Virus genome (UHGV): UHGV-0061378
Strand: one strand, 5' to 3'
Length of the DNA stretch: 40,142 nucleotides
From: a virus
The first letter of the stretch is position 1, and each line of letters opens with the position of its first letter. This document shows positions 3,336 through 31,474 of the stretch, in pieces. Below the pieces are notes generated by a model, which was not told where the DNA came from, did no database searches, and saw only the letters and a list, made by a program, of their open reading frames with translations. The position numbers and the translations under genes are program-made.

Positions 3336-4214
3336 TCAGTAGTTATGTACTGAAGGAGGTAATTCTTTATTCTTAAGTCTCATCCATGCGGAAAGATTCG
3401 TTGGTCCGTCTGGCTCATTAATATCAACATCTCGTGTGTGATTGATTAAAACGTCTCTCGCCATTCCGATAACATACGAGAACTCATGACCGTAGTCGTA
3501 GCATCTGCCGGAATAGTTCGATTGAATTTGTTTTAATGCCGGATACAGTTCGCGGAATAATGCCTGTGAACGGTTAGCATAATCCCATAGCCATACAAGG
3601 CTGTTTGCTTCTTTTTCAGAAAGCTCGTTTGCTTTCTTCTCTTGTTTGCCGACAAACTCGCCTTCAAGCACTACCCTGTGGATGTACTCTACGGCCAGCG
3701 GGATTTGTTCAATTGAAAGTTCATCAATGCTGTCAATACCAAAACGCTGATGAACCATATTGTATGCATCGTCATAGCGAAGTCCTTTCTTTCCTACCAG
3801 CATGTTTACTGCATCGCGTAGCGGCGTTCTTTCCTCAACAGTGGTTTTCTTGCCTTTCACATACTCGCCATGTTTGCGAATTGAAGGTAGAACTTCTGCT
3901 GTTACCCACTTGCGGAATTTGTGCGGGACCGAACCTTTATTGACAGCATCGCGGCAGCGCAGAACCAATGTATACATACCTGATTCGCTAACAATGCTTA
4001 GATTCTGCTCACCACCAAGGGTGTAACTTAAAGTTACTCCCTTTTCATCGTCATCAAGTGCAGTAAGCGCCTTGCGTGAGTTAGTCAGGGTTAAAGCATC
4101 ACAAACATCTTTTGCTACAAACCACGGCTCACCGCATTTGTTGATGACGCGGATTTCACTGTCGCCGAATTTGAAGATGGTGAAATCGTTTTGTGCCTTT
4201 GCTATACTTTTCAT
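3336..4214 (-). CDS. ant: Antirepressor with BRO-N type N-terminal domain
   Basis: Sits in the ant position of the immI region; start at internal ATG 4214 ([11 protein letters not shown]...) with AGGAAA SD, not the track start at 4280. Domain call from memory of BRO-N antirepressors. Confidence 0.75.
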
Positions 4215-4282
4215 GTCAATATTTCCTAATCCGATTTGTTGATACCGAAGCCCTGACTGTTCCCGCAGTTGGGGCTTCAACT

Positions 4283-4486: not shown

Positions 4487-4507
4487 ATAGTAGAGTGCTT
4501 CTATCAT
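4487..4507. promoter_or_regulatory. Arc operator (ATAGTAGAGTGCTTCTATCAT)
   Basis: Reverse complement ATGATAGAAGCACTCTACTAT matches the remembered P22 arc operator; lies between arc and mnt. Confidence 0.8.
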
Positions 4508-4534
4508 GTCAATACACTAACTTGGAGTGATGGC

Positions 4535-4786
4535 ATGGCTAGAGATGATCCGCACTTTAACTTCCGTATGCCTATGGAAGTAAGGGAGAAATTAAAATTC
4601 AGGGCGGAGGCGAATGGGAGATCAATGAACTCCGAGTTGTTACAAATCGTCCAAGATGCTCTATCAAAACCATCGCCTGTGACTGGATATCGCGACGATG
4701 CAGAACGACTCGCTGATGAGCAGTCCGAACTTGTTAAGAAGATGGTGTTTGATACGCTGAAGGATTTGTACAAAAAACCCACCTGA
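4535..4786 (+). CDS. mnt: Mnt repressor
   Basis: 83 aa MARDDPHFNFRMPMEVREKLKFRAEANGRSMNSELLQIVQDALSKPSP..., near-identical to remembered P22 Mnt. Confidence 0.93.
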   Translation: MARDDPHFNFRMPMEVREKLKFRAEANGRSMNSELLQIVQDALSKPSPVTGYRDDAERLADEQSELVKKMVFDTLKDLYKKPT

Positions 4787-4793
4787 CGGTGGG
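4778..4793. terminator. Bidirectional hairpin terminator between convergent mnt and the 337-aa gene
   Basis: CCCACC-TGAC-GGTGGG; the minus-strand reading is followed by TTTTTTG, the plus-strand reading by a weaker T-rich tail. Confidence 0.6.
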
Positions 4794-4799
4794 TTACTG

Positions 4800-5813
4800 T
4801 TACTTGTCTGAATCATCCAGTTCGTCTGTTTTCACATCCTCAAACCTTGGATGCAGGCGATTCATTTTTGCAATAAAATCTGAATAGTCGTTAGATAGCT
4901 TCATAATCGTAACGGTTGATGACAGATGCTCTCTTAATTTTTGATATCCAATATTTGGCGTCAGCCCCTGAAACAACTTTGTACCTTTTGAGGCCTTTAC
5001 GTTCTGCTTTTTAAGCTCCTCAAGGATGTTTGGTGCCAATCTCTTGTAGACGATATCATTTGTCAAAACGCCAAAATACTGAGGCCGGAAGCGGGGATTT
5101 TCCGGCGGGTATTCTAAGCCCCTTAACCTGAAAAGCTCTTCATAATAATCAGCAGGAAATGTTGTAATATAAGGTTGAATTTCCTTTGCGACAAAGGCCT
5201 CGAGTATTTTGGCGAGTGCATCTTTTTCTCTATCTCGCTGGTACCCCGTCGCTTCATCAACAAGCGCTATTATTCCGACTTTAGCTAATGAGCGCACCAG
5301 AATTTCAGCTTTCTTGGCTGTCTCTAACTGGTTTGGCCTGGTGATAGCGCCTGCCTCTCTTGCCTTTAAATAAACATCGCAGACAAGAGGTATTATGGAT
5401 GCGTCATAACCTTCCTGGACGGAGCCAGTAATCGTCTTGTATTTGACCTTATTGATCACATCCATAACATCTTGATTTATATATTTTTTAAGGTTTGCAG
5501 CATCCATAAAAGCGGGCATATTGATCACCCCCTCTTCTTGAGGTGCTCTACCCCCTCTTTGTGGTCGGCCAAATGCTTTAAAAACAGAAGCTTGTGATAT
5601 GATACGCCGTCCATTTTCGAGAACCGCGACATCTAATTCCGCATCACCGATCTTTAACTTTCCCTCATTCGCAGATACGGGCAATAAAGCTTTTTCTTTT
5701 TTTGCGGCAACAGCCTTTCTTGAGGATTCTTTTCTTTGCTCTGCTGTCATTTTTGCCGCGCGTGCCTTACCGCCTTTGGCCTTCCCACTAACATCATCAT
5801 TTTTCATGAGCAT
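4800..5813 (-). CDS. Hypothetical protein with Lys/Ala-rich N-terminal tail (possibly P63C-domain-like), in the sieA hotspot
   Basis: Long ORF; track start at 5867 is TTG, first ATG at 5813 (MLMKNDDVSGKAKGGKARAAK...). Domain assignment is an unverified recollection. Confidence 0.6.
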   Translation of the reverse strand: MLMKNDDVSGKAKGGKARAAKMTAEQRKESSRKAVAAKKEKALLPVSANEGKLKIGDAELDVAVLENGRRIISQASVFKAFGRPQRGGRAPQEEGVINMPAFMDAANLKKYINQDVMDVINKVKYKTITGSVQEGYDASIIPLVCDVYLKAREAGAITRPNQLETAKKAEILVRSLAKVGIIALVDEATGYQRDREKDALAKILEAFVAKEIQPYITTFPADYYEELFRLRGLEYPPENPRFRPQYFGVLTNDIVYKRLAPNILEELKKQNVKASKGTKLFQGLTPNIGYQKLREHLSSTVTIMKLSNDYSDFIAKMNRLHPRFEDVKTDELDDSDK

Positions 5814-5847
5814 ATCTCGTGTTGTGATTGATAAGTCAATCATACAC

Positions 5848-5865
5848 ATGCACGTTGTAACGTGC
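5848..5865. promoter_or_regulatory. 18-bp perfect palindrome TGCACGTTGTAACGTGCA plus extra half-site (candidate operator)
   Basis: Read directly in the divergent intergenic region between 4800..5813(-) and 5967..6356(+); a third TGCACGT copy lies at 5878..5884. Confidence 0.5.
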
Positions 5866-5966
5866 AATATTTAAATATGCACGTAAATTGCAAATCAGAT
5901 AATGAGGAGACTTTCTCCCCCTTGCACTGACATCATGGTATTCTGCTCAAAACTAAGGAGGTTGGT

Positions 5967-6356
5967 GTGAAGCCATTTCTTGCTGCTATGTTCTTATTCA
6001 TATCTTTTGGGGCTACAGCAGAGTGCTGGGTCGTTGGAGATATGCGCGGAATAAGCTATTCAGAACGAAATAATTTCCATCCGGAAGAAGATGGTTTTAG
6101 TGGAACATTCATCATTAAGACAAGCGGTGAAGATGCCAGCATCACATATTCTGGGACAGATGCGGGCGGCATGGCTTACAAAGCATTGTCTAAAAACTCC
6201 ATCATAGGAATCGGCGCGAATGGCGAAACTCAACGCGTTATCGACTCATGGGTAATACATCCTACTGGAACAGTTTTAATGTCAAAAACCATTTCCGGTT
6301 ATGGAAATATGGATTCAACCAAAGCTTTTGTTGGAAAAGTAAAAAGAAAATGTTAG
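5967..6356 (+). CDS. Small secreted/periplasmic protein with cleavable signal peptide (moron)
   Basis: GTG start 5 nt after a strong SD (TAAGGAGG); N-terminus MKPFLAAMFLFISFGATA-ECWVV looks like a Sec signal; opposite strand to the late operon; AT-rich by eye. Confidence 0.65.
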   Translation: MKPFLAAMFLFISFGATAECWVVGDMRGISYSERNNFHPEEDGFSGTFIIKTSGEDASITYSGTDAGGMAYKALSKNSIIGIGANGETQRVIDSWVIHPTGTVLMSKTISGYGNMDSTKAFVGKVKRKC

Positions 6357-6380
6357 CGATTGAATCCAATTTCCCATACG

Positions 6381-8222
6381 TTACTGCTGTGTTGCCTCAG
6401 TAGCAAACAGCGGTCTGATGGCATTCGCAGCGTTATTTAGCGCTCTTTCATAGGCTGGTGTTCCTGCTTTGGTGTTTGCCAAACGAAGAAGCATATTCCT
6501 TGCGGCTTTGGACTCATACAAACGCATCATTGCACCAAAGCCAGCCTCAAGCCCCATTGATACTCCAAGAGTCGCAGTTGCGCCAATCGTCCTTATCCTG
6601 TTGGCTTGTGATTGCCCCGTCTGAGTTACTACATTTGCGGTGTCTGACCTTGCTGTTTGCTGTAGAACTTCATGAAGAGCATCAAGCTCTTTCATGTGCT
6701 TTCCAGAAAAAATAGTGTTGTAAATTTCACCGCCTGACTGAGATTTAAGCTTATTAACTTCAGTGATGAACTTGGCTGGAGAGTCACCGGCCTTTTCCGC
6801 TATTTTGCTGACGTAAGCTGCACGCATAGCATCTTTCCCTTTATCATCCAATGCGCTCCAGATTCGTTTCACGTCAGATGGCTTTCTGCTTAATACAACG
6901 GTATTTATAAGTTCAGGACTGGCTTCACTGCTTGCCTTGTTGAGCTTGTTAGCAATGTTTTTATTAAGCACCTTATTATAAACGTTTGCATAATCGGAGT
7001 TTGCTTTAAGGTATTTTGCTGCGTCTGATGCACCGAGGTTTTTTGCAACTGCGTTACGAAGATCTTTTGACATTGCATTCTCTACCATATTGGTAGCTGC
7101 TTTTGCCTGGTTGGGGAAGACCATAGCATCTCCCTGAACATTGGATCTAAATGCTGTTCTGTGCTGACGCAAGAGATCAAACGTAACATCCAAATCAGTT
7201 GCAGGGTTTGCTAATTCTTCACGTAGGTTACGCAAGGATGTAAGCAAGCTTTGATTGGCAGACGTCCCAAGCCGTTCCTGTCTTGCGATCGCTGTATTCA
7301 GAGCATTCATGGTATTTGTGGTATCAACTGCGGCATTACCCATTTTATTGGTGACGTCATTGATAACAGCGCCAGCGGCATCCTTCCGTCCCCTTAACGT
7401 GGTGGTCAGAGATTTCACCACATCATCAGGGTTGTACTCACCAAAACGGTCAAAATAATTGCTTACCAGCTTACTACGCGTTGCATATTGCTCCGCTCGC
7501 TTTGAGCCTGTCCCGAGCAAAGCCCCCTCAGCATCCTGAGTAAGTCCGCGAGTGAAAGCATTTTTCGGCGGGATAACATCAGATGTCATTGGTGTCACGC
7601 CCATCGATTCTGATGTGGCAATTTTCTTCGCCACTTCTGGCGCAATATCACCTTTTATAGCCGTTATTCCACGCCCTATTCCCTTTGCTGCTGCGGAAAG
7701 AACACCCTGAGCGGCAAGGTTAACTCCGGCATTTTTAGCTGCATTTTGTGCGAAATCACCTTTCTGATTTGCGGCCTCTGCCAGTGATCCAATAGCCATG
7801 CTTCCTGCCGTTCCAACTCCTGGAACTAAATACCCGCCAATTGTTTCTCCAGCTTGAGCGTAGGGGTCTGTCGGTCTGTCTACTGGACGATAGACATCAT
7901 CCAATACTTTTGGCCCACCAAGCCCCTGACTGATTGCATTAATCAGACTTGCGCCACCCTGCAATACGTCAAATGGTATGTTTACCAGACCACGACCAGC
8001 CTGTTCTGCAATTTGCCCTGCACTTTGACCACCAGTGAGCCAATCGCCAGCTTGTTGCATCAATGATGGTTCTTCCCGTGTTGGTGCATTATTGTCCTGA
8101 TTAACTGTTTTTTGCTGAACAGCCTGACCAGCAAAATACTCATCAATGGCGGTGCCAATATCTTCCGTGCTCGTACCATCAGGGAAGGTAAATGTCTTAC
8201 CGTTTGCAGTTACTTTCATCAT
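6381..8222 (-). CDS. Ejection (internal virion) protein, P22 gp16-like
   Basis: 613 aa in the conserved gp7-gp20-gp16 order and size (P22 gp16 about 609 aa); start overlaps the gp20 stop (ATGA). Confidence 0.8.
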
Positions 8223-30371: not shown

Positions 30372-31088
30372 ATGGAAAATAAAAAATCACTGACGACAGA
30401 ACAGCTCGAAGACGCTAAGCGGCTTAAGGCTTTGTATGAGTCAAAAAAGAAAGAATTGGGAATAACCCAATACTCAATCGCTGATGAACTGGGTATCACC
30501 CAAGGAGCGGTAGGGCATTATCTTAATGGCAGAAACGCGCTAAACGTTGAGGTTGCATCTGGTTTTGCACGATTGTTGCAAGTCTCAATTGCTGATTTTA
30601 GCCAGTCAATTGCTGCCAAGGTTGCAGAACAGGCAGAAAGCCTTAAGAGCGATGCCAACGTAAGGTATGCAGGGGAATACAGAGCAGGAAAGAGGTATCC
30701 GGTGTTAAGCAGTATCCAGGCTGGCTCGTGGTGTGAAGCATGCGAACCATACACCATTAAAGACATAGATGTTTGGCTTGAGTCTGACGCGCATATTCAA
30801 GGTAATGCGTTTTGGCTTAAAGTGGAAGGTGATTCAATGACGGCACCGGTTGGGTTAAGCATTCCAGAGGGAACATTCGTTCTTTTCGATACCGGAAGGG
30901 AGGCGATCAACGGCAGCTTGGTCATAGCAAAACTTTCTGACTCTAACGAAGCAACATTCAAGAAGCTGATAATCGACGGCGGAAATAAATACCTCAAGGG
31001 ACTTAATCCTGCATGGCCTCTCGTGCCAATCAATGGAAACTGCAAGATTATAGGCGTTGCAATTGAGACAAAACTAAGGCTGGTTTGA
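30372..31088 (+). CDS. cI: CI repressor (HTH plus LexA-like S24 peptidase domain)
   Basis: 238 aa; N-terminal HTH (…ELGITQYSIADELGITQGAVGHYLNG…) and C-terminal S24 region (…EGDSM…KL…); divergent from cro. Confidence 0.9.
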   Translation: MENKKSLTTEQLEDAKRLKALYESKKKELGITQYSIADELGITQGAVGHYLNGRNALNVEVASGFARLLQVSIADFSQSIAAKVAEQAESLKSDANVRYAGEYRAGKRYPVLSSIQAGSWCEACEPYTIKDIDVWLESDAHIQGNAFWLKVEGDSMTAPVGLSIPEGTFVLFDTGREAINGSLVIAKLSDSNEATFKKLIIDGGNKYLKGLNPAWPLVPINGNCKIIGVAIETKLRLV

Positions 31089-31105
31089 TCACGCAAGGGG
31101 CGATT

Positions 31106-31474
31106 ATGGTTGGAACCGCTATAGCAAGCTTTTTTGGGATGTTGGCAATCTCGACAATTTACGGCTTAGCGCATGCTTTTATTGCGAAATCTCTATCAGA
31201 AAAAATAAGTCAGGCTTGGGCGCATAGATCAGCTCGTTTCATGATTCTAGTGATCATAGCAATACAAGGGATATCTGCATTTATCCTCTATGGTTCAAGC
31301 TTATACCTGTTGTATCAAGGCGCGACATTTACGCCTTACACCAGTGATTACGGAACGCTATACGATGGTAGTGAAGACATCTCTATGGCTTGGATCGTCT
31401 TTGGTTTATCTATGGCCGTGTCTGTTGTAGCAGACATCATTAAGGTAATTCTCGTCTTAACCTTCGCTGACTAA
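31106..31474 (+). CDS. Small polytopic membrane protein downstream of cI (rexAB position)
   Basis: 122 aa from ATG 31106 (AAGGGG SD), 18 nt after the cI stop with no terminator between; 3-4 hydrophobic segments. Confidence 0.6.
   Translation: MVGTAIASFFGMLAISTIYGLAHAFIAKSLSEKISQAWAHRSARFMILVIIAIQGISAFILYGSSLYLLYQGATFTPYTSDYGTLYDGSEDISMAWIVFGLSMAVSVVADIIKVILVLTFAD

Follow-up and report, generated by a model that had tools for sequence, protein, structure and literature searches.

Introduction

SieA of phage P22 is an inner-membrane protein that blocks the DNA entry of superinfecting P22-like phages. Another exclusion gene, hex of phage 434, is co-transcribed with cI from PRM, and the exclusion of P22 by a Salmonella lambda-imm434 lysogen requires it (Shkilnyj et al., PMC3564112). 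The present work concerns the virus genome UHGV-0061378 (40,142 nucleotides (nt), one strand, 5' to 3'; the whole stretch is called the window here), which is a P22-like E. coli prophage, and specifically the two open reading frames (ORFs) found at 4800-6356, between the maintenance-repressor gene mnt and the ejection gene 16. Sequence comparison identifies the ORF of 129 amino acids (aa), which adjoins gene 16, as a divergent, relocated new member of the Hex family; its neighbour codes for a 337-aa protein of the Pfam P63C family.

What is known of the action of Hex comes from work on 434 and lambda-imm434. Deletion of hex raises lambda-imm434's spontaneous induction about 30-fold, in recA+ cells only (PMC3564112). 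A 6-kDa fragment, sHex, reported to start at Glu43 of the 158-aa ORF, blocks in vitro the cleavage of the 434 and P22 repressors that RecA stimulates, and this fragment partly complements the deletion; full-length Hex proved toxic on over-expression and resisted purification from the cytoplasm, and sHex was purified with guanidine (PMC3564112).

Results and Discussion

The Hex-like Protein

The relationship of the 129-aa ORF to Hex is apparent from several comparisons. A relaxed tblastn search of phage genomes gives full-length identities of 27-28% with the cI-adjacent gene of 434, lambda-imm434, Sf6 (gene 38), HK446, HK633 and Sf101, and the 434 record annotates this gene as "repressor protection protein", which is Hex. 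For 434 Hex itself the identity is 27%, with E 2e-4 in tblastn and E 1e-11 in a pairwise BLASTP comparison, while alignment of the family profile with 434 Hex by hhalign yields a probability of 99.8% and E 2e-30. Furthermore, the motifs ECW, ETW and FVG..G.C are common to both proteins. A word-indexed search returned 22 close relatives, and a HMMER search of 1.84 billion representatives returned 87 related clusters, nearly all of 125-135 aa; in the family alignment Cys20 and Cys129 are invariant and G28, W95 and G123 are conserved. The PHROGs match is phrog_2651, a family without an assigned function. Searches of Pfam, NCBIfam and PADLOC with the 129-aa protein gave no family match, only noise, and PDB sequence searches with single proteins and with profiles of both families (Hex-like and P63C) gave nothing useful. 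An earlier note, made from the letters of this DNA, had given the two proteins no known function; they turn out to be a Hex homologue and a Pfam P63C protein.

Export signals are a property of the whole family. Among the 72 aligned members to which the export statistics refer, the n-region contains Lys or Arg in 71, the hydrophobic core is strong in all, and position -1 is occupied by A, S or G in 68. The median signal peptide measures 19 aa and the median mature protein 110 aa, and the mature part carries either 2 or 4 cysteines in every member. The signal peptide that the earlier note had ascribed to the 129-aa protein is therefore upheld by features found in 68-71 of the 72 sequences. The mature part is hydrophilic (grand average of hydropathy, GRAVY, -0.31), and the N-terminal signal peptide is the sole hydrophobic segment. 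The AlphaFold2 model built from the 72-sequence alignment has a predicted local distance difference test (pLDDT) score of 93.6 and shows a helix at the N-terminus (residues 3-15), after which comes a beta-barrel of the up-and-down kind. A BFVD fold search with this barrel matched only uncharacterised phage proteins, at E of at least 1.5e-3. Two candidate assignments of the barrel were rejected: an outer-membrane eight-stranded barrel of the OmpX/Ail/Lom or NspA kind, which takes ~150 aa or more with membrane-spanning strands, for which the mature part is too short and ends in Cys instead of an aromatic residue, and a periplasmic lysozyme inhibitor of the MliC/PliC kind, as none of the 72 members matches Pfam MliC/PliC or any other family.

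The published N-terminus of sHex bears directly on processing. Translation of the 158-aa 434 ORF places E43 immediately after ANS, in ...TTSANS followed by ECW, which is exactly the predicted signal-peptidase site. Since sHex (E43-N103) begins at this predicted cleavage site, it would correspond to the first half of the predicted mature barrel. The toxicity and the odd processing of Hex on over-expression may likewise be due to the signal peptide.

The genomic setting is that of sieA. The order in P22 is ant-arc-mnt-orf59a-sieA-16, with sieA on the mnt strand and 22 nt from gene 16. In the window the order is tailspike, ant and arc (all on the minus strand), mnt (plus), the 337-aa ORF (minus), the 129-aa ORF (plus) and gene 16 (minus); mnt is 98% identical to its P22 counterpart, and identity with P22 stops at 4796. 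The 129-aa ORF lies on the mnt strand at 24 nt from gene 16, and in place and direction it thus matches sieA exactly. Both reading frames appear in the ORF listing at the coordinates given by the earlier note, the mnt and gene 16 borders and the synteny with P22 bear out its description of the locus as the P22 sieA hotspot, and it was also right that neither protein resembles SieA (BLASTP against SieA, E 0.91). The strong Shine-Dalgarno sequence that it described before the 129-aa ORF is present as AAGGAGG ahead of a GTG codon. It belongs to a leader of about 36 nt, CATGGTATyCTGCTCAAAACTAAGGAGGTTGGT, which is kept upstream of the Hex-like gene whatever precedes it; identity with phage Emek begins at 5931.

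Gene neighbourhoods were counted in 80 viral contigs with a window-type gene (88-98% identity) and in 80 contigs with a 434-type Hex. The window-type gene is convergent with gene 16 in 78 of its 80 contigs, and in most of them mnt is found upstream on the same strand, with 300-2000 bp of variable cargo in between. This gap between mnt and the Hex-like gene is the variable part of the hotspot: it contains a P63C-type gene in about 10 of the 80 contigs, including a divergent allele in L102, and none in the other 70. The 434-type Hex follows an S24-type repressor directly in all 80 of its contigs; the S24-type, cI-like repressor of the window is encoded at 30372-31088, 24 kb away from the Hex-like gene.

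Further arrangements were observed in the family. Both paralogues, the gene 16-adjacent type and the cI-adjacent 434 type, occur in one P22-like contig, IMGVR_UViG_648276644_000012 (L155, L245). A 48%-identical relative forms a tandem pair of 128-aa genes abutting a gene 16 homologue (L004, 3359-4164), and a 34%-identical gene is inserted into a siphovirus tail operon in the opposite orientation, once beside RexA/RexB (L008, 6001-7822).

Taken together, sequence and model suggest, with moderate confidence, that the Hex-like protein is a periplasmic exclusion factor. A Sec signal peptide would direct its export to the periplasm and would be removed after ATA, and the mature part of about 111 residues would fold there as an eight-stranded beta-barrel, with a disulfide linking the second residue to the last to close it. 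In this location it would do the job of SieA, protecting the lysogen by blocking superinfecting P22-like or lambdoid phages at the envelope during DNA delivery. The superinfection exclusion or defence role proposed by the earlier note gains from the Hex homology of the 129-aa ORF, as hex is needed for the exclusion of P22 (PMC3564112); on the other side, no PADLOC defence model matches either protein.

The P63C Protein and Its Upstream Element

The 337-aa protein matches Pfam P63C (PF10546) over residues 203-293, with 84.3 bits against a cut-off of 26.1 (E 9e-24), and phrog_2384 over its full length (E 2e-146). At least 6,759 homologous clusters were found. Homologues of 320-345 aa in Pseudomonas, Chromobacterium, Achromobacter and others are 52-60% identical, and those encoded by Gordonia and Streptococcus phages show 47-50% identity from residue ~46 onward. 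In an alignment of 42 mainly proteobacterial sequences, D186, E187, Q192, R195, E205, E211, N252, R258, K268, E295, H296 and H321 are invariant. The AlphaFold2 model (pLDDT 73.9) contains a basic helical hairpin at residues 11-42 and a confident alpha/beta domain at residues ~45-155, and this N-terminal domain has weak fold similarity to winged-helix/APSES-like domains. The Lys/Ala-rich tail described in the earlier note is in reality an N-terminal stretch, residues ~8-42. A basic N-terminal motif, GKAKGGKARAAKMTAEQRKESSRKA (window 5712-5789, minus strand, residues ~9-34), is near-invariant in proteobacterial P63C proteins, reads GKSKGGVARANALSAEERSAIARKAAAARW in ST104 orf23, and is absent from the Gram-positive homologues, whose matches begin at residue ~46. 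The NCBIfam search with the 337-aa protein returned noise only, and no functional study was found in the literature on P63C, L0095 and 933Wp35.

The frame (4800-5813/5867, minus strand) offers three candidate starts, namely ATG 5813 (337 aa), ATG 5807 (335 aa) and ATG 5849 (349 aa, the choice of NCBI). Close P63C homologues have a conserved CACAACACGAGA block 5-10 nt ahead of the start (window 5814-5830, minus strand; L035, L036, L038, L048), so that ATG 5807 fits best, over 5813 or 5849. The block may be part of the ribosome-binding region.

A conserved palindromic element is located 40-90 nt ahead of the P63C gene. The 40-kb window has four TGCACGT heptamers, of which three fall within 5849-5884, and all the repeats of the element are perfect inverted repeats. 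Two homologues, one 87% identical (L035) and one from Chromobacterium 58% identical (L012), have the same layout upstream, and more distant homologues, including ST104 orf23 and SEN34, have GCAAGC-N11/12-GCTTGC variants. Perfect inverted repeats (arms of at least 7 bp, spacer of at most 12 nt) occur within 200 nt upstream at 29 of 36 loci, compared with 5.4 +/- 2.3 in shuffles. The half-site motif, which was defined post hoc on mutually related loci, occurs 1.89 times per upstream region of 130 nt, compared with 0.29 times per window in a control set of 2,712 (p 6e-23). A search of the window with the operator motif found the cluster to be unique, with no regulon visible elsewhere in the phage. 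Because the element is consistently linked only to the P63C gene and its half-site varies with the protein, the simplest reading of these sequences is that the P63C protein binds its own upstream palindromes.

The placement of P63C genes in other genomes points to the lysogeny modules. At 13 of about 54 distinct viral loci the gene one or two places upstream, on the same strand, codes for an S24/helix-turn-helix (HTH), cI-like repressor. Salmonella P22-like phages of the ST104 group have the order cI-orf23(P63C)-gene 24, S. pyogenes Javan515 has repressor-P63C-integrase, and in Gordonia phage Barco the P63C gene lies within the integrase/repressor lysogeny block. Other positions are antisense in the nin region (SEN34) and antisense between tail genes in P. 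aeruginosa prophages, and in two of the latter cases the gene comes directly after an Arc/Mnt-like gene of an immI-like module. The lysogen-expressed accessory genes rexAB, hex, stk and bstA have the same placement pattern (PMC3564112, PMC8585504). The relatives downstream of a repressor lead us to propose that the protein has an accessory role in the prophage, in exclusion or abortive infection.

An autoregulated, BstA-like role is accordingly proposed by analogy for the P63C protein, with low-to-moderate confidence. The N-terminal alpha/beta domain would bind the palindromes upstream of its own gene, providing autoregulation, and the very conserved C-terminal domain would be the effector. 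This would amount to the organisation of BstA, in which an N-domain that binds DNA is joined to an effector C-domain and the gene has a cognate DNA element at its 5' end. Combined with the periplasmic exclusion proposed for the Hex-like protein, this autoregulated accessory role gives an account of the locus that we regard as somewhat probable as a whole.

Two Modules in One Slot

The features of the slot are collected in Table 1. The P63C gene appears to be a self-contained module, comprising the gene, a putative palindromic operator/promoter region of its own and a terminator.

Table 1. Features between and including the mnt and gene 16 borders (window coordinates)
Feature	Position	Strand	Basis
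mnt, Arc/Mnt-family maintenance repressor; left border of the slot	4535..4786	+	Pfam Arc, E 3.9e-30; Repressor_Mnt, E 7e-19
P63C module, 1.2 kb	4754..5957		Megablast and pairwise alignment; 99.5% identical to the 933W nin region and relatives
Bidirectional terminator-like hairpin common to mnt (+) and the P63C gene (-)	4776..4795		8-bp stem with 5 G-C pairs; T-run TTTTTGT on the - strand
P63C-family protein, coding sequence (CDS), 337 aa	4800..5813	-	Pfam P63C; phrog_2384
Operator-like palindrome cluster	5825..5884		ACGTGCA-N11-TGCACGT-N4-ACGTGCA at 5849-5884; TGATTGA-N4-TCAATCA at 5825-5842
Conserved leader and Shine-Dalgarno CATGGTATTCTGCTCAAAACTAAGGAGGTTGGT of the Hex-like gene	5931..5966	+	Also kept in loci without a P63C gene
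Hex-like protein, CDS, 129 aa	5967..6356	+	GTG start, 6 nt after the AAGGAGG ribosome-binding site
Predicted Sec signal peptide MKPFLAAMFLFISFGATA, then ECW	5967..6020	+	Family n/h/c-region statistics; AlphaFold2 helix at residues 3-15
Mature Hex-like protein, 111 aa, and stop codon	6021..6356	+	Predicted eight-stranded beta-barrel; Cys20 and Cys129 invariant
Gene 16 (ejection protein), which forms the right border and converges on the Hex-like gene	6381..8222	-	DNA transfer protein annotation in the identical E. coli prophage

The history of this module can be traced. The hairpin between mnt and the P63C gene is also present in P22 and in the copy carried by the Shiga toxin (Stx) phage 933W. 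That copy is gene L0095 in the nin region, between a methyltransferase gene and roi, and it recurs in many Stx phages. Its flanks in 933W (L002, ~5001-5045 and 6180-6204) consist on one side of the final 10 mnt codons, the same as in P22, together with the terminator hairpin, and on the other side of 23-24 nt of the Hex-like leader. These remnants of mnt and of the Hex-like leader show the Stx-phage copy to be a descendant of one in the mnt/Hex-like slot of a P22-like phage. The P63C module thus stands alone in 933W, and the 129-aa gene occurs without P63C in the 70 contigs mentioned above as well as in Emek and ST-35. The two-gene cassette of the earlier note consequently dissolves into two unrelated accessory genes, each of which landed independently in the slot between mnt and gene 16.

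Several neighbouring features were also recorded. The region 4500-6500 is 100% identical to E. coli strain T309.Ta3, where the prophage adjoins a tRNA-Arg gene and intS. The antirepressor gene (Bro-N + P22_AR_C, 314 aa) is intact in the window (3336-4280, minus strand); in T309.Ta3, whose prophage otherwise matches the window, it is annotated as split into a partial pseudogene and a C-terminal fragment (L001, 6786-7715). The sole match in an Rfam scan was, as expected, sar, an antisense RNA of the immI region (RF00262, 71.6 bits, E 4e-14; window 4216-4282, plus strand), which lies outside the two-gene interval, at the ant/arc junction as in P22. In phage Emek the slot from mnt to the Hex-like gene (L003, 2794-3667) holds a DUF4065 protein, a partner ORF and several small ORFs. 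Finally, a further 129-aa ORF (31085-31474, plus strand) has a start that overlaps the repressor stop codon and shows, by eye, several hydrophobic, membrane-like segments; in this rex/hex position of the prophage it may be another lysogen-expressed accessory or exclusion gene.

Weighing of the Alternatives

Several points weigh against envelope exclusion by the Hex-like protein. The identity to Hex is low, at 27%; a promoter scan of 5814-5966 found no sigma-70-like site for either gene (the best by-eye candidates in this interval reach 8/12 and are not claimed); and the sole biochemical study puts the activity of Hex in the cytoplasm, where it inhibits RecA-stimulated cleavage of the 434 and P22 repressors (PMC3564112). 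The 129-aa protein might then act as Hex has been published to do, as a cytoplasmic protein that binds a cI/C2-type repressor and blocks its RecA-stimulated autocleavage, with lysogeny stabilised and exclusion arising as a side effect. Such an action agrees with the recA-dependent rise in induction upon hex deletion and with the in vitro block of repressor cleavage by sHex (PMC3564112), and the window protein is a Hex homologue in a prophage that does encode an S24-type repressor. It is at odds, however, with the signal peptide and the even cysteine number across the family, with the predicted closed barrel, and with the nature of sHex, a guanidine-purified first half of that barrel whose N-terminus coincides with the predicted signal-peptidase site; moreover, the window gene is linked to the ejection gene 16 and not to the repressor. 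Repressor protection is for these reasons considered unlikely, and on the basis of sequence, the predicted model and one published N-terminus, the Hex family is more likely to exclude at the envelope than on the repressor. The export signals would also suit a periplasmic host-fitness factor, for example an inhibitor of lysozyme or another enzyme or a small-ligand binder, comparable to the lambda lysogenic-conversion genes Bor and Lom, and relatives do occur at moron positions in unrelated prophages. Such a role seems improbable given the lack of MliC/PliC or other family matches among the 72 members, the tight linkage to the sieA slot and the genetics of the only characterised member, which mark it as an exclusion gene (PMC3564112).

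The role proposed for the P63C protein likewise meets contrary observations. The helical C-terminal half of the model is poorly resolved; alignment of the family profile by hhalign gives a probability of 1% with Bro-N, so that homology is not detectable, and of 0.6% with BstA of BTP1; and a PADLOC-DB 2.0 scan of both proteins and families gave noise-level matches only (a weak match to PDC-M46A, E 0.014, did not recur among other members of the family and was discarded). The half-site statistics suffer from the post hoc motif and the relatedness of the loci, and the motif overlaps a -35-like TTGCA, so that part of the signal could reflect promoter conservation. In addition, the P63C gene is co-oriented with late transcription in the window and with lytic transcription in 933W. 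The layout here therefore does not imply lysogen expression, which the earlier note had read from it; for the P63C gene that suggestion is carried by the relatives downstream of repressors, and opposed by the late-operon orientation in the window itself. A regulator of the phage's own lysis-lysogeny circuitry, an antirepressor or a protein of the Roi/Rha type instead of a defence protein, would fit the P63C domain at the C-terminus of Ant-like proteins (phrog_2899, a weak match of E 0.003), the recurrence of the gene by immI modules (mnt/arc/ant) in E. coli and P. aeruginosa and next to roi in the 933W early operon, and an operator-like element typical of regulators. Nevertheless, an antirepressor co-transcribed with its own target repressor makes little sense, the operator motif shows no regulon elsewhere in the phage, and a partner-specific regulator would not usually keep ~50% identity across three phyla, which makes this alternative rather doubtful. 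Sharp module boundaries, 99.5% identity across unrelated backbones, the flanking remnants dragged along, insertion on either strand at many intergenic sites and the many invariant polar residues could all be explained by a selfish, homing-endonuclease-like mobile gene that autoregulates through a target-like operator. This is judged very unlikely, as no nuclease family or motif was found in the Pfam, NCBIfam, PADLOC and PDB sequence searches, and as the regular location in lysogeny modules points to a selected function in the lysogen. Least credible is a single functional divergent cassette: the genes share a 153-bp divergent intergenic region with the palindromes, and the arrangement recurs in 3 complete E. 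coli genomes and in the roughly 10 of 80 viral contigs, but each gene is far commoner without the other, the module boundary at 5957 falls between them, and the divergent P63C allele in the same slot of L102 points to repeated independent insertion. We place next to no weight on it.

Implications

The sieA slot of P22-like E. coli and Salmonella prophages is commonly filled by a Hex relative, and the export signals of the family, together with the match of the sHex N-terminus, give reason to re-examine how and where Hex, a 45-year-old exclusion gene, acts. The large P63C family gains three handles, namely a cis-element that is probably bound by the protein, a strong bias toward lysogeny modules and a transfer history; the jump from a P22-like immI region to the Stx-phage nin region is traceable, and the transferred copy is now found in hundreds of E. 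coli genomes. A broader reading, in which Hex proteins are exported periplasmic barrels that exclude at the envelope and P63C proteins are single-gene prophage defences under the control of their element or self-immune through it, is regarded as a tentative possibility only. If it were true, the published repressor protection would reflect a non-native half-barrel fragment, SieA would have in the Hex family a widespread, soluble counterpart in the periplasm, located behind cI as well as next to ejection genes, and the P63C proteins (at least 6,759 clusters, from phages of Proteobacteria, Actinobacteria and Firmicutes) would serve prophage defence. If either protein is a defence factor, this would also have a bearing on the prediction of host range in phage therapy and on the biology of Stx prophages.

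Comparison with Known Systems

With 434 Hex, which is the same gene as Sf6 gene 38, the window protein shares the family, the length, the signal-peptide-like N-terminus and the motifs, and both are non-essential accessory genes of temperate lambdoid or P22-like phages. The settings differ: hex is the second gene of the PRM-cI operon in 434, whereas the window gene occupies the sieA slot by gene 16, with no repressor nearby. The mechanism published for 434 Hex is cytoplasmic (PMC3564112), whereas sequence and model argue for export of the window protein. The likeness to P22 SieA is one of position and orientation, on the mnt strand and convergent with gene 16 at 22-24 nt; in contrast to SieA, with which it has no sequence similarity, the window protein is predicted to be a soluble, secreted barrel.

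The P63C protein is best compared with BstA, the abortive-infection protein of BTP1, which is accompanied by the self-immunity element aba (PMC8585504). Both measure ~310-340 aa and combine a putative DNA-binding alpha/beta N-domain with a C-domain, and, as for bstA, a number of P63C relatives lie directly downstream of a repressor, and a specific DNA element occurs at the gene's 5' end (PMC8585504). Unlike BstA, to which it has no detectable homology, the P63C protein of the window is not encoded next to cI, and its palindromes are a putative counterpart of aba. The Bro-N/KilA-N antirepressors that carry a C-terminal P63C domain have this domain in common with the window protein, and also the logic of a DNA-binding N-domain joined to a C-domain; they differ in that the N-terminal domain of the window protein has no profile similarity to Bro-N. 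Finally, lambda RexA/RexB and 933W Stk are exclusion genes co-transcribed with cI, without homology to either protein, and the two window genes sit instead in the immI/sieA slot; in other phages, the Hex and P63C families recurrently fill the same "rex position".

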